Origin: a virus
Strand: one strand, 5' to 3'
IMG/VR virus record: IMGVR_UViG_3300045988_126355
DNA: 64,000 bases
Below, piece by piece: positions 5,554 to 53,782 of this stretch. How positions within the stretch are numbered: the first letter of the stretch is position 1; each line of letters starts with the position of its first letter. The position numbers and the translations under genes are program-made. The notes under the pieces are model-generated. The model searched no databases. It was not told the origin of the DNA and was given only the letters and a program-made list of their open reading frames with translations.

Positions 5554-5590
5554 GAGCGCCGGCCTGTGAAGGTATGCGCTCTTTGTATTT
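5554..5590 (+). terminator. gagcgc-(16 nt)-gcgctc hairpin plus tttgtattt
   Basis: Perfect 6-bp GC stem plus T-rich tail after the stop at 5496. Confidence 0.5.
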
Positions 5591-5615
5591 ATATAATGCA
5601 TAAAACAATAATAAG

Positions 5616-5870: not shown

Positions 5871-6676
5871 TATTAAAAACGACAACCAACGAGTTTTGTT
5901 TCATTAACGTAAGTTTCTATGAAACAATAGCGGATCCTCGCTATTTCTTTGAACAAGATTATGAAGAGATGCCGGAATATGAGGAAGAATCGGATTTTGA
6001 TTTTGATTCTTATTGCAATAAGTTTATTCCTTTTGTACAGGAATGGGCGAATGAGGTAAGTGAATACCTTTACGGATATGGCGTAAATAACATAAAGGTA
6101 ACATCGGTCGGACATCCAAAAGAATACAATTATGGTACCGATTGGATGAACGTAGAGGTAGAGTTTTGTGATGAATGGAGGCAAAAGATGTTATTTAACA
6201 TTGGTAAGATTGTCAATGATGATAAATGCAAGAAGTATGCGGAGGCTAATTACCGGTCGGTACCAGGATACATCTTTTTTGGGCCTGAAGATTTAAAGGA
6301 ATTTGAAGAGGAAATAATAGAAAGAAAGTCAGATTCGGGATATGATGTAACAATATTATTAAATATGTATCTAACTTTGGCTTTTGTAAAAGAATTTGGA
6401 TTTAAAGCCGGAGAAGCGTGGAGTAAAATAACAGAATACGCTTACGGATGTTTGTCGTATTCTGATTTTGCAACAACAGAGATGCTTATACCAGAAGGTT
6501 CGGAGCATTTATTCAAAGACATTTACACGGCAAAGGCCGACGAATTATATCATCATGTCCTGGATAAATTCGGATGGGCGTGGCGTGATCCGAAATATAA
6601 ATCAGAAACAGAATTATGCTCAATGTTAAAATGGGCAAAAGAAAAAGGCTTGACCATTGAAGAGTTAAGTATTTAA
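5867..6676 (+). CDS. hypothetical acidic protein (269 aa)
   Basis: Long ORF, ATGA-coupled to the preceding gene. Confidence 0.5.
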   Translation: MILKTTTNEFCFINVSFYETIADPRYFFEQDYEEMPEYEEESDFDFDSYCNKFIPFVQEWANEVSEYLYGYGVNNIKVTSVGHPKEYNYGTDWMNVEVEFCDEWRQKMLFNIGKIVNDDKCKKYAEANYRSVPGYIFFGPEDLKEFEEEIIERKSDSGYDVTILLNMYLTLAFVKEFGFKAGEAWSKITEYAYGCLSYSDFATTEMLIPEGSEHLFKDIYTAKADELYHHVLDKFGWAWRDPKYKSETELCSMLKWAKEKGLTIEELSI

Positions 6677-6703: not shown

Positions 6704-6988
6704 GTGAGTATAGGTGCTGCCGTTAAAATATTTTATAAGATGAAAAAAGAAGAGATTCAAACTATTTTATACACAATCAAAGAAGGAGACAGTATTAAAA
6801 TCAAAGTACAAGACAAAAGTGAAGAGATAAGACTGCGGGATCATGTAAGAAGAGTACAGAAATACGGATACAGGTTTTGTTTGTCTCATTTACATGATGA
6901 AATTTTCTATCTGGAGAAGTTGAAAGAAGGGGATAAGGATAAATACTATAGAGTAATAAACAGAGGAAATGGAAAGACCGGAGTATAA
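6704..6988 (+). CDS. hypothetical protein (94 aa)
   Basis: ORF. Confidence 0.4.
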   Translation: MSIGAAVKIFYKMKKEEIQTILYTIKEGDSIKIKVQDKSEEIRLRDHVRRVQKYGYRFCLSHLHDEIFYLEKLKEGDKDKYYRVINRGNGKTGV

Positions 6989-7262
6989 TAAGCTACGCAA
7001 AATGGCTAAGACTACTCCAGGTCTGATAGTGGACGAGGTGCAAAACATGATGCGTGTATCGCTGTATGATAATGGGGAACTTAAGAAGGTGGTAGTAGTA
7101 ATGAAATGCGATTCTTTTTTACAGTCAAAAAGTAACATAGAAAAGATAATGTTATTATCATCTTCTATAGAAGATAGAAAAAACAAAGAAAAAAATAAAA
7201 CAAAATCAGAAAATGAACAGAATAACAAAAATAAGAGAAGAAATAGGAGGAAAACAGGTTGA
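6969..7262 (+). CDS. hypothetical protein with strongly basic C-terminus (97 aa)
   Basis: ORF; tail NKNKRRNRRKTG. Confidence 0.35.
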   Translation: MERPEYNKLRKMAKTTPGLIVDEVQNMMRVSLYDNGELKKVVVVMKCDSFLQSKSNIEKIMLLSSSIEDRKNKEKNKTKSENEQNNKNKRRNRRKTG

Positions 7263-9070: not shown

Positions 9071-9582
9071 AAAAGATAAAAGTAGACAAAGTGATATTAT
9101 ATTACATGGATCGGGTAGACCCTGACGGGAACCTATACCGGTTCTATGTATATAAAGACATGGCATCTGAAATAGAATACTTTTGCACGGAAGAGACAGG
9201 TAATATGACTATACCAATCGGAGAAGGAGAGTATGTCAAGATCGTACCAAAAAAAATAGAGAAAATACCGGTAAGGGGATATAGGAAGCTTACTGGAATA
9301 TGGAATCGTGAAACATGTAACGGGAAGGGATGGTACAGGCTTTTTAATTATTTCAAATACAAGCCGACCCTATGTTATTTTAAAAAAGCGGGACATGATG
9401 AAAATGGGAACACAAGATACGAAATATCATTATTTAATAACATTATAAATGTGACAAGGTATTTCAATCTGTGGAGAATGAAGCCAGGAAAGTATGTTAT
9501 GGTAACAAACGAGTGTGGTGCCTTGGATGTTATAAAAGAAAAATTCGATAACATAAATATAGTGGAATATGGATCTGAATGA
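9067..9582 (+). CDS. hypothetical protein (171 aa)
   Basis: ORF. Confidence 0.45.
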   Translation: MKKIKVDKVILYYMDRVDPDGNLYRFYVYKDMASEIEYFCTEETGNMTIPIGEGEYVKIVPKKIEKIPVRGYRKLTGIWNRETCNGKGWYRLFNYFKYKPTLCYFKKAGHDENGNTRYEISLFNNIINVTRYFNLWRMKPGKYVMVTNECGALDVIKEKFDNINIVEYGSE

Positions 9583-10112: not shown

Positions 10113-10160
10113 GGTGGAGCCTGCCCTGCCATGAGGTCGGCCTGGCTGTCTGTGGCCAGG
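10101..10160 (+). other. GC-rich region with two mutually exclusive stems: cagccagg (10101-10108) with cctggctg (10141-10148), or cctggc (10141-10146) with gccagg (10155-10160)
   Basis: Read directly; GC-rich island in an AT-rich genome at the 3' end of a gene. Confidence 0.4.
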
Positions 10161-10243
10161 GTTGTATATTAGTCAGATAGTGAACAATGAAAACGATACA
10201 AATATTATGAATTTAGGCAATCATATACCTAAAATAATAGCTT

Positions 10244-10606: not shown

Positions 10607-10969
10607 ATGGAAGACGATCTTATTACAACAAAAGAAGTAGGTGATTATCGCATTAAAGTGTATTATTGCCGTGATTCAGAATGCCCTATAACTAATTGGG
10701 GTTTGTTTGGGTCATTCTTTTTTGAATACTCTGATATGCATCGATTGCATGATGAATGCAATTGGAAAACTTTCTTCTACGATAACAAGCATAATCTTAG
10801 AGATGTTATTGATGCTATTGTAATGAAGCATATAGAACAGAAAGACATTGTAAAATATTTAAAGAAAGGGGAAGCGAATGGGATCTCATTCACATACAAC
10901 AGAGGTGGCAATGTATGGGAGTTGAAACATAAGACAAGTCTATATAGGTCAAGAGTTTTCACCAAGTGA
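10607..10969 (+). CDS. hypothetical protein (120 aa)
   Basis: ORF. Confidence 0.45.
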   Translation: MEDDLITTKEVGDYRIKVYYCRDSECPITNWGLFGSFFFEYSDMHRLHDECNWKTFFYDNKHNLRDVIDAIVMKHIEQKDIVKYLKKGEANGISFTYNRGGNVWELKHKTSLYRSRVFTK

Positions 10970-10970
10970 T

Positions 10971-11414
10971 TTGACGGACTTTGATTGCAGAGGAGAATTA
11001 ATAGAGGATCTGGATGATGAAGACCTGTTAGATATCATATCCAAATATGGAAAAGATGTGGTAGCTATAGAGTGGTCGACAAGGGGTTATAATCAAGGTG
11101 ATTATATAAAAGGGATAGCATACGTTACAAAAGAAAAATATGATAATGAAGTCTGCAACAAAGAAGGAGACTGGAAAGAAGATTGTGCCAAAATTATAGA
11201 TAATGAAGTAAAGTCCATAGGTATGTGGATGTGGGGAGATGTAAAAGGGTACGTTCTTGAAAAGAAGGTAGCATTTACCAAGAGATACAAAGACGAATCA
11301 AGAGAGGATGAAGATTGTGAAGAATGGGAAGAGGTTGATTCTTGCTGGGGATGTTACGAGGAGACAGATGAATTGATAAAGGAAGTTATGATAGAGAATG
11401 ATTTAGAAGAATAG
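10971..11414 (+). CDS. hypothetical highly acidic protein (147 aa)
   Basis: ORF; D/E-rich. Confidence 0.45.
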   Translation: MTDFDCRGELIEDLDDEDLLDIISKYGKDVVAIEWSTRGYNQGDYIKGIAYVTKEKYDNEVCNKEGDWKEDCAKIIDNEVKSIGMWMWGDVKGYVLEKKVAFTKRYKDESREDEDCEEWEEVDSCWGCYEETDELIKEVMIENDLEE

Positions 11415-11557
11415 GTTATAATGGCTGATAGTGACGGACGCCACAGGAGACAGGTGGGAAAGTGCGAAGAGCTCCGGTTCAGGGGAGACGGGGCCTGCTT
11501 TGCGTGGCGTAAGGCTACAGTAGATGAAATTGTTGAACATTTTAAAAACAGATAATT

Positions 11558-11827
11558 ATGGGATATATATGTACAAGATGTGGTGGAACAAATGTTGCTT
11601 GTGAAGCCATAGTAAATCCGAATACCGGAAAAATAATAGATTATTTTGATGGATCTTTTATGCATGCTATTTGCTCGAATTGTGAAAACGAGGTGATAAT
11701 ATCCAACATTGAAGAAGTCAAACATGAAATTGATTTAAGGTTTCATGAATTTGTAGAAAGAACAGGGAAGGAGCCTGAATACGTAGAATGTCAGATTGTA
11801 CGGAAAGAGACAGGAGACTTGTTTTGA
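11558..11827 (+). CDS. zinc-ribbon protein (89 aa; CTRCGG...CSNCEN)
   Basis: Two CxxC pairs. Confidence 0.4.
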   Translation: MGYICTRCGGTNVACEAIVNPNTGKIIDYFDGSFMHAICSNCENEVIISNIEEVKHEIDLRFHEFVERTGKEPEYVECQIVRKETGDLF

Positions 11828-12429
11828 TATTGTTTGAAGAATAGTGGAGACCCAATTTTGTTCCCATCACTTTTAGTTAGATAAGTTTTAAGTCCAAAAT
11901 CCAATCCGATAGATGCACCATCATGTGTCTTTCTATAAGAGTTTATAAGATTATGATCTGTAATAATTATCAGACTATATCGATGGCATGTTTCTCTAAC
12001 TATTCTAATTTGTTTAACATTACCTTCGTAGACTCTACTGTATGAAAATCTAAATCGTTTCTTCCCTTTGTTAATTGTTAAACAATTACCATTCAGGGTA
12101 AAACCACCTTGTTTGAATACAAAAGAATTGAATTTCTCCGGTGATTTAAACTTAGGAGGTCGTTTAGCCAACTTCTTAAAGAAACGATTATAAGATTCAT
12201 CAAGACGTTCAAGTATTTCTTGTGTTGTTTGAGAATGAAGAAGATTTCTTTTAATTCTTTTGGCAAAATACTTCTTCATTTTACCAACTGAGATATATTT
12301 CCCAAACAGTTTGTGATACCTACGTTGTAGCGCTAAAGCATGATTCCATACGAAACAACATTCTCGAAGCATCTTGTCAAGATACTTCGTTTTCTTGGAA
12401 TGATAGATGTTGTATTTGTATGAAATCAT
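11791..12429 (-). pseudogene. tnpB: truncated IS200/IS605-family TnpB (OrfB) remnant: N-terminal ~212 aa through RuvC-I; RuvC-II/III and zinc finger absent
   Basis: Matches the TnpB N-terminal consensus and the RuvC-I motif (YKYNIY...CCFVWNHALA; GLDFGLKTYLTKSDGNKIGSPLFFKQYQNK), then diverges to a stop. The only antisense gene in the plus-strand block. Confidence 0.65.
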
Positions 12430-12522
12430 TTTTTTATCTGTAATTTTGATTCAAAATTAATCAAACCAATTCATCCACCTTCTAAAGTATGGTGGTTTTG
12501 TTGGTTAAATAATCATAAAACT

Positions 12523-12930
12523 ATGAGCATAAAAGTAATAAGATACAGGTTGCCATCTTATTGGGCTTGTCCGTTAATCAATGATGATTACACTGGATTA
12601 ACGGATGAAGAATGTGAGGAAATTCATAAAATACAAGATATGGAAAGATTGAATTTTGAAACATTGTTTCGTATCGTAAGATGGGATTACAATCGTTGCT
12701 TTAAGGATGAATCACTGGACAAGGATTTGTTCGTAGAAAAATACGGACGGGTAATGGGTGAGCATTATTATAACAAGTTTGTCCATGAATTTGACGGAAA
12801 TATTCTGAAGATGGTTGGTTACTTCAGAGGTTCCGAAAAAGAGGGGCAAGTCTTCTGCGATATGATAACCGAACGTATTGAAAAATACGAAAAGAGAATG
12901 TCATATGATAAAGGTAAGTTAAACAATTAA
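12523..12930 (+). CDS. hypothetical protein (135 aa)
   Basis: ORF. Confidence 0.45.
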   Translation: MSIKVIRYRLPSYWACPLINDDYTGLTDEECEEIHKIQDMERLNFETLFRIVRWDYNRCFKDESLDKDLFVEKYGRVMGEHYYNKFVHEFDGNILKMVGYFRGSEKEGQVFCDMITERIEKYEKRMSYDKGKLNN

Positions 12931-12942
12931 AAAGATATTTAT

Positions 12943-14004
12943 ATGAACAATTCAATGGTCGCTCACTTGTGGGCTCATGAACAAGAAGAATCAGCATCAG
13001 GGGGCAATTTCTTCTTTGAAGGTACAAGTATTTATTCTTATGGGCATCACTTTGAAGTCGGGAGAATAGTAAAAAACAAACAAGGGAAGAAAGCATACCT
13101 GATAAATGAAGATTATTATTCTGTTACCACGAGCAAACATCAATGCTATGTTCGTAATGCGATACCAACTTGGGCAATGGTTTTCAGTGTAGGGGATAAT
13201 ATATCGGATACTGGTAATATGAGGTTTGTTGCCAGCAAACTGGAATCAATTAAGAAGTCTATTGAAAAATACAAAAGAGCTAAAACAGAATTATCTTATA
13301 CAGATATTTGGGGCGCTTTTGGGAATATGATGGATTACATTCAGTTCTTTAACATGGGGACTGCTAAGAGTATCCTTAAAAAGAGTGCTAATGATTGGCT
13401 TGGAACCAATCATGAATTATCCAAGAGCGGAGATAGTATCAAGCGTAAGCACGTACATGAATTAAAACGCATCTTTCAAATTTTATTAGATCATCAAGGA
13501 TTAAAAGTGTTAGGGACCGTAAATGTGATTGTTGATGAAGTTTGCGGGGAAGGTACATGGATTAAGTATTCAGAAAGATCTGAAAGATGGAGAAAGGGTG
13601 AGGAAGAAAGAGAAAGAATAAAATTAGAGAGATTAAGAAAGGAAGAAGAAGCCCGTTACAAGGATTTTGATGAAAAACTGGAAGAGTGGAAGTCAGGAGA
13701 AATCAATTTCTTGAATACACCTTTCTATATTCCTGGTGAAAAACCTAACGCCTGGATTCGTATAAAAGGAAATATTATTGAGACAAGTAAACAGATAAAG
13801 ATTGGAATAGCAGAAGCCAGAAAACTGTGGCGGGCTGTGTCGGCAATGCACCGGGGCGCCGAGTTTCGGCACGGTCTGGTGGAGGACATCACCGGTCACC
13901 AGTGGAGTCTAAATCGGTACGAAAACGATTTGCTAACCGTTGGATGTCATAGGATAGCATATAACGAAATGGAGAGAATAGCAAAACAACTGGGATGGGT
14001 TTAA
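12943..14004 (+). CDS. hypothetical protein with central E/R/K coiled-coil (353 aa)
   Basis: Long ORF. Confidence 0.5.
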   Translation: MNNSMVAHLWAHEQEESASGGNFFFEGTSIYSYGHHFEVGRIVKNKQGKKAYLINEDYYSVTTSKHQCYVRNAIPTWAMVFSVGDNISDTGNMRFVASKLESIKKSIEKYKRAKTELSYTDIWGAFGNMMDYIQFFNMGTAKSILKKSANDWLGTNHELSKSGDSIKRKHVHELKRIFQILLDHQGLKVLGTVNVIVDEVCGEGTWIKYSERSERWRKGEEERERIKLERLRKEEEARYKDFDEKLEEWKSGEINFLNTPFYIPGEKPNAWIRIKGNIIETSKQIKIGIAEARKLWRAVSAMHRGAEFRHGLVEDITGHQWSLNRYENDLLTVGCHRIAYNEMERIAKQLGWV

Positions 14005-14050
14005 GTAACCCATCTTGTTTTATTGATTACATAATTAAAAATAAAAAGAT

Positions 14051-14639
14051 ATGGAAAATCCAATTATTGTTCCGTTTGATTTAAATACGGCGAGAAAAAT
14101 TAAAAGCGGAGAAATAGAAGGTTCAGTATTAATTGGTAATATTAAAATAGAATTTGTATATGAGTCAAAAGACTGTGCAGATCGTTATAATTTACTTTTT
14201 GTAAAAAAAAGATGAATCTGGGATAAGTGCTATATATGCCGATACAGAAGGTCGTACTTTTTTCAACAACGTTCTGGAATTGGAAGTAGAGGCTGGAGCG
14301 TATTTTAAGAAAGGAGATGTATTAATAAGCACGCTTGGGAACCCATTTATATATAATGGTATTATTAATAGAGAAGGAGATATGGGATGCATATATGGTA
14401 TATCGGCATATGGCGAGTATATACCATCTCTTGGTCAATTAAATTTAATGGCCCATTATATGGACGAACTAAACAAAGCATTCACTTATGTTTCGGCATC
14501 TCCCCTCTCCTCGACGTGGTATTGGTCCAGTACTGAGAGCAGCCAGGCCGTCGCGTGGTACGTGGTCTTCTCCAGTGGTCTCACGGGCACCGGCAACAAG
14601 CACATCGGAGACATGGTTCGGACGGTAATTGATTTTTAA
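14051..14639 (+). pseudogene. DUF1566 (Lcl C-terminal domain)-like protein split by a frameshift at an A8 homopolymer (14203-14210)
   Basis: Upstream ORF 14051-14215 (MENPIIVPFDLNTARKIKSGEIEGS...LLFVKKR*) and downstream ORF (TTG 14280, open back to 14205). Removing one A of the A8 tract fuses them. C-terminus has LPSLGQLNLM...YWSSTESSQAVAWYVVFSSG...VRTV, the DUF1566 signature. Confidence 0.45.
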
Positions 14640-14650
14640 AAAGAATTACA

Positions 14651-15448
14651 ATGATAACATCGGTAAAAATAAAAGACAATACAAAAACTCCATTTGAATA
14701 TGTTTCGGATATAGAAGCATTTGAAAATGGCAAGAAATTTATTTTCAAGCCAGGAGTGAATGTAATTATAGGTAAAAACGGTAGCGGAAAATCAACCTTG
14801 CTTAACATCATATCAATGTATGCGTTATGCGAGAAATCCATGTGCTCTGAAATGCCGACCGAGGCACTGGATTTTCCACCTATATTTGATGACGATGATA
14901 AGGTTTTTGATGGGATTGACATATCATCCGATTATGCAGGGAAAGTATTCCGTTTATTGCCATCGGCGGAGATGAATCGAGATAGTATATTGAAAAACAT
15001 CAGCAATTTAGATTTGTATGTGAATAATATTCGAAAATCTTATGGAGAGAAAGTGGTGTTATCATTGGAATCGCTTTTCAATTTAATGTTCAGTCAGAAG
15101 GATTATACGTTTCCAATACAAGATCTTGTAGAATACAAGAAAAAATCAAATGCGTTTTGGATTAAAAGAATTGATAACCTGTTGAAGTATTATAAAAGAA
15201 ACCGCATAGCATTAACAAAAAGCAGTTTTGAATACACGGTTCTCATGGATGAGCCAGACAGGAATCTTGATATTGATAACATAATGCAAATTTATAATGT
15301 ATTGTCATTCCATAAACCACAAACACAAATTATAGCCATAGTACACAATCCGGCATTGATTTACAAGTTAAGCAAATTAGATTGTGTGAATTTCATAGAG
15401 ATGACAGAAGGATATCTTAGTAAAACTTGTATATTTATGTCTAATTAA
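14651..15448 (+). CDS. ABC-type ATPase (AAA_21/RecF-like; Walker A GKNGSGKST, Walker B VLMDEPDRNLD, H-loop IVHNP) (265 aa)
   Basis: Motifs read directly. Confidence 0.65.
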   Translation: MITSVKIKDNTKTPFEYVSDIEAFENGKKFIFKPGVNVIIGKNGSGKSTLLNIISMYALCEKSMCSEMPTEALDFPPIFDDDDKVFDGIDISSDYAGKVFRLLPSAEMNRDSILKNISNLDLYVNNIRKSYGEKVVLSLESLFNLMFSQKDYTFPIQDLVEYKKKSNAFWIKRIDNLLKYYKRNRIALTKSSFEYTVLMDEPDRNLDIDNIMQIYNVLSFHKPQTQIIAIVHNPALIYKLSKLDCVNFIEMTEGYLSKTCIFMSN

Positions 15449-15460
15449 ATATTTTCAACA

Positions 15461-15844
15461 ATGAGCTATTTTGTATTAATGGGGAGAAGAATCCCAAAGC
15501 AAGCCATAACAGGCTTCAGATTCCAAAATGAAACAGACAACATTCGTCCTTTCCTATCAATCAGGATAAGAGGGAAGGAGGAAATTATACCCTTTAAAGA
15601 TAAAAGGGAAATACTGTCCGTGAAAGCGCATTTGTGTTCTGTCTTCTCCAAATTTGTGAAAATAGGTGACTGGTATCTCAAGATGTCGGAAGTTAAGGAG
15701 TATAAGCCGGTGACTGCCGAAGATATGAATCCTTACATCTTATTTAAAACATCTAAGTTCGGAAACATAAAGGTTCGTTTCCAAAAAGATGAAGATATGA
15801 ATGCAGAATTATTGGTATTGGATCAACTTTTTGATGTGGAATAA
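15461..15844 (+). CDS. hypothetical protein (127 aa)
   Basis: ORF. Confidence 0.45.
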   Translation: MSYFVLMGRRIPKQAITGFRFQNETDNIRPFLSIRIRGKEEIIPFKDKREILSVKAHLCSVFSKFVKIGDWYLKMSEVKEYKPVTAEDMNPYILFKTSKFGNIKVRFQKDEDMNAELLVLDQLFDVE

Positions 15845-15873
15845 ATTAGTAATCACCTTTTATAAATCAAGCT

Positions 15874-16125
15874 ATGACTTGGAAAGAATTGAAAGACAAA
15901 ATATCTCTTATGACAGAAGAAGAGCAACAGCAGGAAGTTGCAGTTTGGGGAGAATATCTGAATTTGATGAAAGATTGCTCCTTGGAGAAAACAAATGAGA
16001 ATATGTACTACAACTCTGAATGGGATTATACTCTTGAAGAGAGTGAATTGGAACCGGAAGACAAGAATGACCCTGATATACATAAGGTATATGAAGCAGG
16101 AATGCATTATATTTATTCAAATTGA
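15874..16125 (+). CDS. hypothetical acidic protein (83 aa)
   Basis: ORF. Confidence 0.4.
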   Translation: MTWKELKDKISLMTEEEQQQEVAVWGEYLNLMKDCSLEKTNENMYYNSEWDYTLEESELEPEDKNDPDIHKVYEAGMHYIYSN

Positions 16126-17686: not shown

Positions 17687-18348
17687 AAACAGTTTTTGAT
17701 TTAAGCAGAGATGAGATTGTGGCATTGACAGACGAAGAGATAAGTCTGTATATAGACAAAGAGCTTGTTGGTAAGGGTATTCCAATTGAAGCTAAAAACT
17801 GGAATATAAAGAACGAAAAAGAAGTCGTGTATCCAAGAACTGGAGTTCCAGTATTTATGTTAAAAGATATCGGCATCGGTTTTAGAACCGTAGAAGGTGC
17901 AACTGAGGTGGCTAATTTGCTTGTTAAATATAATGCATTTAAAATAGAATCAAGGTTTCTGACAGGATCGTATGAACAGTTTTGGATCATAAAAGAAAGT
18001 GTTTGCCCGGCTATTAAAGGGGAAGCGGGGTATAGCAAAGAAGAGTTTGATAAGGTAAACAAGGAAAGCAAAGATCCAGAATTGGAAAGTATAAATTCCT
18101 TCAATGATACTGTGAAAAAAGCCAATGAAATTAAAGACAGGGTGTTGAAATACGTGTACAACATAAAACAAGAGCGTTCATATAACAATGACCTGGTTGG
18201 TATCTTTGAAAGGTATAAAGATATAGCAGACGGTGATATGGAGGTAGCTATGAATTTTATTAAGGAGGCCTATCCATTCAATGAAGAAACAGAATCGTTT
18301 ATCAGGAAAAAGTTTGACATGCCTATGCCGGACGAATCAAAAGAGTAG
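17683..18348 (+). CDS. hypothetical protein (221 aa)
   Basis: ORF, ATGA-coupled. Confidence 0.5.
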   Translation: MKTVFDLSRDEIVALTDEEISLYIDKELVGKGIPIEAKNWNIKNEKEVVYPRTGVPVFMLKDIGIGFRTVEGATEVANLLVKYNAFKIESRFLTGSYEQFWIIKESVCPAIKGEAGYSKEEFDKVNKESKDPELESINSFNDTVKKANEIKDRVLKYVYNIKQERSYNNDLVGIFERYKDIADGDMEVAMNFIKEAYPFNEETESFIRKKFDMPMPDESKE

Positions 18349-46690: not shown

Positions 46691-47037
46691 ATGATAAACA
46701 TTTCTTTCAGAATACTGATCTTTATTCCGTATATCAATTTCATCTCATCTCTATCATATACGTCAAAAAAGGATTCACTGGGGTCCTTTGGATTTACGTT
46801 CAATTGAATTATGCAATTACCAGTATAAACCTTAAGCCTATAATTATCGAAGTATATATCCTGCATGGTTTCAAATGTCTCAATTAAATTTTCAACAAGT
46901 GCTCTGTTAAATGAAAAAGATTCTTTACCATCACCTTTAAATGTGATATGATCTAAATTCCTGTTGTCAAATTCATACTTTAATTGATTGCCGTCCATCA
47001 TATCATAAAATATTGACTTTCTGATTATAAATCCCAT
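46687..47037 (-). CDS. hypothetical protein (116 aa)
   Basis: ORF, ATGA-coupled. Confidence 0.45.
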   Translation of the reverse strand: MGFIIRKSIFYDMMDGNQLKYEFDNRNLDHITFKGDGKESFSFNRALVENLIETFETMQDIYFDNYRLKVYTGNCIIQLNVNPKDPSESFFDVYDRDEMKLIYGIKISILKEMFII

Positions 47038-48522: not shown

Positions 48523-49158
48523 CTATACTTTCTTTATCCTACAATACAAACCCCACAAAAACTCAGCGGAGAAACTATCCCATACATTATTCTTCTGCCA
48601 AAGTTCTACTTTGTTAACAAACCAAGACCATGTGGGACCCTCATATGAAGAATCAGATGATGATCCCAATCCGATTTTCTCCATTTCATTCGCCACATCA
48701 GAATAAGGATCTAAATCGACTCCCCTAATCATGTTAATAACATCATCCTTGTCTAACGTAAATTGAAACCGCTCCTTGTTAGTAGGCGGATCTTGATTCA
48801 ATTTACCAGTCGCAAGCCATTCTCCATCATGATACAATTCGGCAAGTTTCTTTACATTATTTTTAAGAAAAGAATACTCTTGTATGACTTCCATAAAATC
48901 AGCTTCGTTAGCTTTACCCTCTATGAAGATAACGGTTTTGCTTCCAGGTCTATGATCGTCTAAGCTTGCCGGGATTCCCAATATCGTCCATCCTTTAAAC
49001 TCAGCTATCTTAAAACGCATGACATCAAACACCTTATAAAAATCATCACAATCTACAGATTCTATTACCTTAACATCCTCTTCCGTAAATTTACCTCGTA
49101 TTGGAATAACATGATGACCAGGGCAGCCATCGGTTCCGAAATATGCGATTCTAACCAT
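48523..49158 (-). CDS. hypothetical protein (211 aa)
   Basis: ORF. Confidence 0.5.
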   Translation of the reverse strand: MVRIAYFGTDGCPGHHVIPIRGKFTEEDVKVIESVDCDDFYKVFDVMRFKIAEFKGWTILGIPASLDDHRPGSKTVIFIEGKANEADFMEVIQEYSFLKNNVKKLAELYHDGEWLATGKLNQDPPTNKERFQFTLDKDDVINMIRGVDLDPYSDVANEMEKIGLGSSSDSSYEGPTWSWFVNKVELWQKNNVWDSFSAEFLWGLYCRIKKV

Positions 49159-53023: not shown

Positions 53024-53782
53024 AATTTTATAGTATTTAATTGTTAAACATACGTGCATGAAGCACGTAACAAAGATCATGATTGCAGGGTGGAACAAGG
53101 CTGAGTTTGTTTCCGATAAAATGGAAGGATTTTCAGTAAAAACGGAAATATAATATACAACGAGTAGTTTTCCCCATTTATGGGTAAAAATTGATAATCA
53201 GCAACTTTCGCTTTTCCTTTTTTGGGTAAAGCGCTGTAAATCAAAACAGGATCCGCATCACTGCGAATCCTGCCTCAACTAATCTAAACTAAAATACCAT
53301 GAAAAACTTTTCCCCACTAAAACTAAAGAACGAACAAATGTATGAAAATACATGCTTTTCACAAAGAATCCGTATCCTGTTCTTTGGTATGGTTAAGTAC
53401 ATGGGATATAGTTCTGATACTTAATCCGGTTTGATTTTGTATCAGATTATAAATATAGGATTTTGAAACTACAGTTCTTAATTAACCTAAATCATTCATA
53501 ATGTTTTTATACATAAGATGAATGCTGTTGTTACGTTTGATGGTACTGATTCTCATTTCCTACTGTTATTAGTTACGTTCGGTTCTTACTTTTTCCTTAT
53601 TTCCATAATCCCTTCCTGAAACTAATATTGCAAACTTAACAAAAATAATTCATAAACAATGAAAATCTAACTTTTCTTGTATGTTATTGATATACGTGCA
53701 TATATAAGAAAAGTGAGACTTTCACAAGCCTCACTTCCCAAATTATAACTATGAAAAAACTATATATATATATATACAAAAA

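Follow-up and report, generated by a model that had tools for sequence, protein, structure and literature searches.

Results

Genes and features of the locus

The DNA analysed here, referred to as the window, is a stretch of 64,000 nucleotides from a virus (IMG/VR record IMGVR_UViG_3300045988_126355). A block of plus-strand genes extends from ~0.5 to 38.6 kb, and the open reading frame (ORF) at 11791-12429 is the sole credible minus-strand gene in it, as had been stated in the initial annotation; a 123-aa minus-strand ORF at 11354-11725 is a mere shadow of plus-strand genes. The features of the locus are as follows:

11558..11827 (+): phage gene shortened by the same deletion that truncated tnpB, 89 aa against 137 aa in the related locus L035 (3397-3810)
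11791..12429 (-): tnpB-remnant ORF, 212 aa, ATG start
11791..11817 (-): eight non-TnpB codons (SPVSFRTI) and a stop, which read through the truncated phage gene's 3' end in antisense
11817..11819 (no strand): deletion joint, tnpB ...CAATATCAAAACAA-G-TCTCCTGTC... phage gene, with the G at 11818 common to both parents
11818..12429 (-): tnpB codons 1-204, covering WED, REC and the first RuvC strands including the catalytic D177 (GLDFG), assigned by homology and a structure model
12430..12514 (-): complete left end (LE), GATTATTTAACC... up to the tnpB ATG, 85 nt; copies at many sites begin here
12475..12495 (-): LE subterminal hairpin, CCACC / ATACTTTAGAA / GGTGG, with an 11-nt loop, conserved in the LEs of other copies
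12515..12519 (-): target-adjacent motif TTTAT (minimum TTAT), directly 5' of the element, defined by empty versus occupied sites
12523..12930 (+): flanking DUF6926 gene, 135 aa, whose start abuts the motif and the left end and which marks the conserved insertion site

Identity and extent of the open reading frame

When the 212-aa ORF was compared with profile libraries, it matched the NCBIfam profile NF040570 ('guided_TnpB') over profile positions 1-230 of 389 (E=3.6e-25), and also NF038281 (E=4.4e-21). Pfam returned a weak HTH_OrfB_IS605 match and nothing else. The HMM check proposed in the initial annotation was thus positive for the NCBIfam TnpB profiles, but the two Pfam families that had been named, PF01385 and PF07282, did not match the ORF in the Pfam search, because the regions which those models cover are largely deleted. 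In the full-length relative at L015, PF01385 matches residues 166-270 and PF07282, the zinc-finger (TNB) domain, matches residues 281-347; the latter domain occurs neither in the ORF nor in any frame of the window.

The protein database contained 530 relatives of the ORF, the best with E=2e-126 and 96% identity, and many of the closest were located on contigs of 75-154 kb. The first 204 residues are 84-97% identical to the full-length 378-aa TnpB of related ~150-kb gut phages. Judged from sequence, the TnpB similarity of the ORF is far beyond chance. On alignment with relatives of 360-371 aa, the match ran through GLDFGLK...FFKQYQNK up to the last homologous residue, K204 (nt 11818), followed by eight residues without relation to TnpB. 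The description of the ORF as a TnpB N-terminus reaching through the RuvC-I motif GLDFGLK therefore holds. It had also been noted that no RuvC-II/III or zinc finger follows. This was borne out for the whole window, where neither three-frame translation nor tblastn with four full-length relatives found the C-terminal part of TnpB in any frame. A frameshift or sequencing error hiding a full-length gene, which the initial annotation had considered, was rejected by the same searches, since nothing of TnpB was found past nt 11818.

The remnant corresponds to the left 56% of the element (~700 of ~1,243 bp). D177 is the only residue of the RuvC triad in it; the glutamate (LNIE) and the second aspartate (NDRD) of the full-length relatives lie past the breakpoint. 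Sensitive blastn with the whole element gave no further copies or miniature derivatives in the window beyond the known fragment.

Left end, hairpin and target motif

Upstream of the ORF, the ccacc-(11 nt)-ggtgg hairpin reported earlier was confirmed, its arms being CCACC at 12495-12491 and GGTGG at 12479-12475, but its interpretation as part of a left-end remnant was not, because 12430-12514 is a complete left end following TTTAT. An outer stem, AACCAA (12506-12501) / TTGGTT (12469-12464), surrounds the hairpin. The hairpin is kept in the left ends of copies from many other insertion sites, and the left end folded as single-stranded DNA gave z=-2.6. Only 3 nt separate the TTTAT motif from the DUF6926 gene, which starts at 12523 on the plus strand.

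The full-length element in related phages

Close relatives of the remnant TnpB are encoded at 260 IMG/VR loci, and the best 80 of these were surveyed for the element. An open frame of at least 370 codons was present in 67 of the 80, eight were defective and five ran off the contig end. Several contigs carried two or three copies (up to 3 per contig), and 30 different right-hand flanks occurred among the best 80 of the 260 loci. Over loci L002-L081, on contigs of ~75-154 kb, at least 3-4 alternative left-end types were seen (85, about 80 and about 135 nt).

Copies from different sites become similar at GATTATTTAACC..., always preceded by TT(T)AT, and the element ends at ...CCCATTTGCTTTAGCGATGGGAGTATGTCAA, ~17 nt beyond the tnpB stop codon. 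Three positions of the window are unoccupied sites that are occupied in relatives: 17859, between CAGTATTTAT and GTTAAAAG (occupied in L003); 56087, between GAAATTAT and GAAACTTC (occupied in L043); and 31412 on the other strand (occupied in L028). Comparison of empty and occupied sites at these three positions, and of L057 with L015 at the site of the remnant, showed ...TT(T)AT followed directly by GATTATTTAACC... with no target duplication. Insertion exactly 3' of a motif without target duplication is a hallmark of IS200/IS605 elements.

The left-end hairpin has the design CCACC-A-TAC-TTTA-GTA-GGTGG or variants of it, and full copies carry a right-end hairpin of the same shape, CCCAT-T-CGC-TTTA-GCG-ATGGG. 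In L009 the right-end hairpin is a doubly compensated variant, CCCAC-CGCC-TTTA-GGCG-TGGG, and L038 carries a near-identical one. The last 227 nt of the element, mostly within the ORF, folded far better than shuffled controls (z=-4.1), as would be expected of an omega-RNA scaffold; in L015 the putative scaffold is at 6930-7156. No Rfam model for omega-RNA matched a full-length locus or the window, and blastn with the whole element found no counterpart of this structured 3' region in the window.

A full-length relative aligned with ISDra2 TnpB (8BF8/8EXA/8H1J) over residues 11-352 (E=3e-27), the D/E/D triad and the zinc-finger cysteines being aligned; full-length relatives keep the triad and the CxxC..CxxC motifs. 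Movement of IS200/IS605 elements needs a Y1 (HUH) transposase, TnpA, in cis or in trans. A tblastn search with an IS200 TnpA sequence as its only query, and hence a weak test, detected no TnpA in the window, within 6 kb of a copy at the 80 loci, or at two bacterial loci. As no tnpA was seen beside any copy in this weak test, the element was classed as IS1341-like (tnpB-only). At 85% identity or above, the family was found on phage contigs only. A scan of bacterial genomes by exact peptide words, in which absence is weak evidence, gave only 56%-identical matches in Prevotella and Ca. Cryptobacteroides MAGs.

Several other positions in the window differ from relatives in their occupancy. The empty sites at 17859, 56087 and 31412, and also 53638-53646, are occupied in L003/L005/L006/L008, L043/L047, L028 and L011, with the guide-matching flank after TT(T)AT. 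The L003 flank is 99.5% identical to the window, and the stretch 14410-16000 is 100% identical; near-identical flanks with differing occupancy point to very recent insertion or loss in the phage clade. At 46824-47024 and 48702-48892 (also 5871-6360), the window contains 190-200 bp of phage DNA that is missing from occupied relatives at two sites (L010/L016/L044 and L013/L022/L050/L056). In the window these pieces are bounded on both sides by TTTAT/TTAT, as though the element had taken the place of a segment between two motifs. Next to the left end in L012, 489 bp have been lost, with TTAT kept. Such losses may possibly reflect deletion of adjoining DNA by a transposase, or recombination between two insertions close to each other.

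At 10113-10243 the window has a GC-rich intergenic piece in an otherwise AT-rich genome, with an 8-bp inverted repeat (CAGCCAGG / CCTGGCTG) and no Rfam match; L035 and L057 lack this piece and have a tnpB element at its position. In L086, 7373-7490 is a solo right-end/omega-RNA remnant, consisting of the last ~118 nt of the element at 85% identity without tnpB. Its position matches ~5590-5600 of the window, and it is the mirror image of the left-end remnant described here. Finally, in the copies encoding P0019, P0040 and P0076, internal in-frame or frameshifting deletions have removed RuvC and the zinc finger and kept the N-terminus and the 3' scaffold tail; copies of this type are possible non-autonomous carriers of guide RNA.

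The same site in related phages

The initial annotation had proposed a search of relatives for an intact copy or an empty site, and both were found. L015 carries an intact 378-aa copy at the site of the remnant. In L035 and L057 the site is empty, and the stop codon of the upstream gene overlaps the DUF6926 start codon. L009 has a same-site copy with a nonsense codon at position 140. Two further loci have truncations at this site, namely L087 (protein P0003), from ~aa 214 to window position 9552 with ~10 nt overlap between the alignments, and L086 (protein P0115), from ~aa 123 to window position 9202. Together with the joint, which was mapped to the nucleotide (see below), these sites support the proposal of an IS200/IS605 insertion followed by deletion.

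All three same-site deletions spare the left part of the element. This is explained most simply by survivorship, since a leftward deletion would remove the DUF6926 start 3 nt away. Decay over the whole family is mixed: some copies have frameshifts or nonsense codons, others have internal deletions with the 3' tail preserved, and others have terminal deletions that end in an accidental tail. Among the family's decay products, there was no recurrent N-terminal-only product and no shared new C-terminus.

The deletion joint and the truncated phage gene

The joint was derived from a three-way alignment of the window, the L015 tnpB and the intact phage gene of L035 and L057. It reads ...CAAAACAAGTCTCCTG... 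and has a 1-nt microhomology (G 11818). BLAST end points agreed with it in 80/80 IMG/VR loci. That unrelated plus-strand genes lie downstream, as noted earlier, was also found here, the joint leading into the convergent phage gene at 11558..11827. This 89-aa gene has no Pfam match. It is in register with the L035 gene and identical to it as far as ...KETGD, and its last two codons and stop come from antisense tnpB. Hence tnpB and the phage gene are fused tail to tail, each entering the antisense strand of the other a few codons before its stop.

Since tnpB is cut at codon 204 and its partner gene is also shortened, with 1 nt of microhomology between them, a single deletion of ~2 kb is suggested. 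With L035/L057 as the model, the loss would amount to ~546 bp of the element and ~1,410 bp of phage DNA, the latter probably made up of three small genes together with the final third of the 137-aa gene.

TnpB-guided cutting was considered as a cause of the deletion and found no support: neither the right-end flank of L015 (the expected guide) nor the other right-end flanks seen match the phage DNA at the breakpoint. A TTTAT that lies 2 nt from the breakpoint in L035 is absent in L057 and was treated as a coincidence.

Other irregularities were observed near the joint. The plus-strand 44-aa ORF at 11421-11555 is the C-terminal remnant of a 130-aa gene (L035 3813-4205), and at a breakpoint at ~11414-11420, ~260 bp of L057 is missing in the window. 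With this second breakpoint at ~11420, the segment 11420-11818 becomes a 400-bp island bounded by two deletions. The plus-strand ORFs at 10607-10969 (120 aa) and 10971-11414 (147 aa, TTG start) correspond to one 269-aa gene in L015 (7607-8416), which is split or stop-interrupted in the window.

Age, rarity and selection

The identical 212-aa gene was found on 8 contigs. Two loci fetched from two different samples (L082 and L083) have DNA exactly equal to the window over 12.6 and 11.5 kb. A search for the deletion junction found it absent from IMG/VR, and in JGI metagenomes it gave a single match, due to chance and unrelated. When the fragment was compared with 79 other copies, two private substitutions were observed, both synonymous, and no private amino-acid changes. 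An allele confined to one strain and lacking private amino-acid changes indicates a recent deletion. From these comparisons the deletion allele, known from one phage strain, is recent and lineage-specific. The initial annotation had spoken of an old insertion. This applies to the insertion, which is common to diverged phages, but not to the deletion.

Pairwise dN/dS between the fragment and its nearest copies was 0.04-0.10, no different from the baseline of 0.11 among intact copies. The low values are no sign of constraint on the fragment, because nearly all of the divergence arose in functional ancestors before the deletion or came by exchange between copies. As for such exchange, the tnpB part (11818-12429) differs by 6.7% from the same-site copy of L009, against ~1% for the flank 12515-14021 (~1.5 kb), and the tnpB copy nearest to the fragment is that of L003, at a different site. 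The mismatch in divergence points to sequence exchange between copies, by gene conversion or re-homing. With 8 carriers identical in protein and 2 private substitutions, such sequence data would have no power either way as to selection on the fragment.

Predicted structure and residual capability

An AlphaFold model of the ORF, made with a 56-sequence alignment, had block-mean pLDDT values of 81-93 for residues 1-160 and of 35-59 for residues 161-212. Its best structural match was 8ex9_A (TM-score 0.78 normalised to the target, rmsd 2.8 A over 163 columns), a conformation of ISDra2 TnpB in which only WED and REC are resolved and RuvC is not. The 212-aa frame would accordingly be predicted to give a WED+REC module and a disordered RuvC stub. 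With one of the three catalytic residues, and with no TNB, omega-RNA or right end, the fragment cannot cut, be guided, home or be excised. Most likely, then, as far as can be judged from its sequence, the remnant does nothing.

Discussion

An ordinary decayed remnant as the best explanation

We consider it highly probable that the locus contains the left half, now inactive, of a tnpB-only (IS1341-like) IS200/IS605 element, that is, an ordinary decayed remnant and not a new gene. Its anatomy, the history of its site and the joint are established by the alignments described above. The element would have inserted 3' of TTTAT, 3 nt upstream of the DUF6926 gene and antisense to the early operon. 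Later, a single illegitimate deletion with 1 nt of microhomology is presumed to have fused tnpB, at codon 204, with the interior of a convergent phage gene, tail to tail. Such a deletion would have removed tnpB codons 205-378, and with them the zinc-finger (TNB) domain, the glutamate of RuvC-II and the aspartate of RuvC-III. The omega-RNA scaffold, which lies within the 3' part of tnpB, would also have been lost, as would the right end and the neighbouring small phage genes. A complete left end and an open 212-aa frame would be left over. The left part may have survived because deletions in the opposite direction would destroy the DUF6926 start, and because the deletion is too recent for more decay; the single origin and the size of the deletion, like the lack of function, we infer from the comparisons above. 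Counting against the remnant reading are the open frame and the intact left end, with whatever promoter is present in it.

Could the protein have been retained?

These same two facts could instead be taken to mean that the left end drives expression of a functional 212-aa protein made of WED and REC alone, perhaps a competitor or repressor of sister copies that has no nuclease. It is conceivable that such a protein would bind the omega-RNA or the TTTAT-flanked DNA of intact sister copies, and related genomes do carry the element in multiple copies. The structure model predicts that WED+REC folds alone, and this is the part of ISDra2 TnpB that is ordered on RNA and DNA when RuvC is unresolved (8ex9); the last 50 residues of the 212-aa product, on the other hand, are predicted to be disordered. 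It may also be argued that three independent deletions at this site all spared the N-terminal part. However, those deletions end at ~aa 123, 204 and 214, each with an accidental tail, so that they share no common product, and the neighbouring gene, which looks essential and lies 3 nt away, accounts for the survival of the left side. Moreover, the allele occurs in one strain with identical DNA and shows no sign of persistence, and the 64-kb window contains no intact copy and no omega-RNA scaffold. Beyond the window, the phage genome could contain intact copies with an omega-RNA to which the fragment might bind. On balance a retained protein appears improbable. The initial annotation had offered a WED/REC-only derivative kept for a new role as its alternative; we obtained no positive support for it, the end points of decay being variable and without a shared C-terminus.

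A particular form of this idea, which we regard as more doubtful still, is that the stub made from the intact left end is a natural nuclease-free decoy, soaking up omega-RNA or occupying the TTTAT-flanked targets of sister elements. It is equally doubtful that, by acting on intact sister elements, whether of its own phage or of a co-infecting one, it would lessen their self-inflicted cutting. If true, a decoy stub would represent a 'truncation route' to TnpB domestication, distinct from TldR.

Could the DNA have been retained?

A second possibility is that the DNA was retained and not the protein, the reverse-complemented left end serving as a 5' UTR/ribosome-loading region or promoter for DUF6926, with the tnpB stub as a passenger. 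The element lies 3 nt from the DUF6926 start, which in empty-site genomes is overlapped by the upstream stop, and the left end is kept in every decayed allele at the site. The first few tens of nucleotides would suffice for such a role, however, and we hold the proposal to be unlikely; it is compatible with decay of an inserted element and not opposed to it. To our knowledge, sigma-70 promoter scans do not apply to the likely Bacteroidales host.

Nothing was found in favour of an artefact of assembly or sequencing, be it a chimeric join or a full-length tnpB with a frameshift, and it can practically be dismissed, since the same gene and junction occur on 8 contigs with exact DNA at two fetched loci from two samples, no frame of the window has TnpB C-terminal homology, and both flanks of the joint are collinear with relatives.

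Meaning of the remnant

Being a decayed remnant, the feature itself matters little: it is textbook IS decay, and the annotation should be corrected to a pseudogene or partial insertion sequence, not a gene. It serves better as a marker for a clade of ~150-kb human-gut phages that carry a multicopy, mostly intact tnpB-only element, and in which near-identical genomes differ in occupied versus empty sites. The active multicopy TnpB family is more interesting than the remnant, and it is a natural system in which to study the spread and persistence of TnpB elements in viral genomes, apparently with no transposase gene beside them.

Comparison with known systems

A search of the literature on TnpB in phage genomes and on truncated TnpB returned general papers only, and a search on 'csAssE' returned nothing relevant. 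The family resembles the IS1341 group (tnpB-only) in having a single tnpB, subterminal hairpins at both ends and a predicted omega-RNA scaffold overlapping the tnpB 3' end, and in inserting 3' of a short T-rich motif without target duplication; the weak tblastn search also showed no adjacent tnpA in the 80 loci. The window copy differs from that group in being partial, the right end with its hairpin, present in full copies, having been deleted.

When compared with ISDra2 TnpB (8BF8, 8EXA, 8EX9, 8H1J), the ordered part of the fragment superposes on WED/REC. Unlike ISDra2 TnpB, the fragment ends ~27 residues past the first catalytic aspartate and has no TNB, lid or guide RNA.

The obvious model for a new role would be the TldR proteins, TnpB-like nuclease-dead repressors (bioRxiv 10.1101/2023.11.30.569447), which like the fragment are TnpB derivatives without nuclease activity. 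TldRs have almost the full length of TnpB, retain a guide RNA and are conserved beside a target gene. The fragment differs in that its guide-RNA region is deleted, its truncation is idiosyncratic, and it has no conserved partner or lineage, being found in one strain.

Truncated TnpB copies are routinely set aside in surveys of TnpB elements (PMC9956272). It is such ordinary truncated IS copies, i.e., partial tnpB/orfB pseudogenes, that the remnant resembles most fully: one end and part of the gene are kept, an adjacent deletion has taken the other end, and the copy can no longer move. There is no essential difference between them and the remnant, whose history can be reconstructed to the nucleotide.
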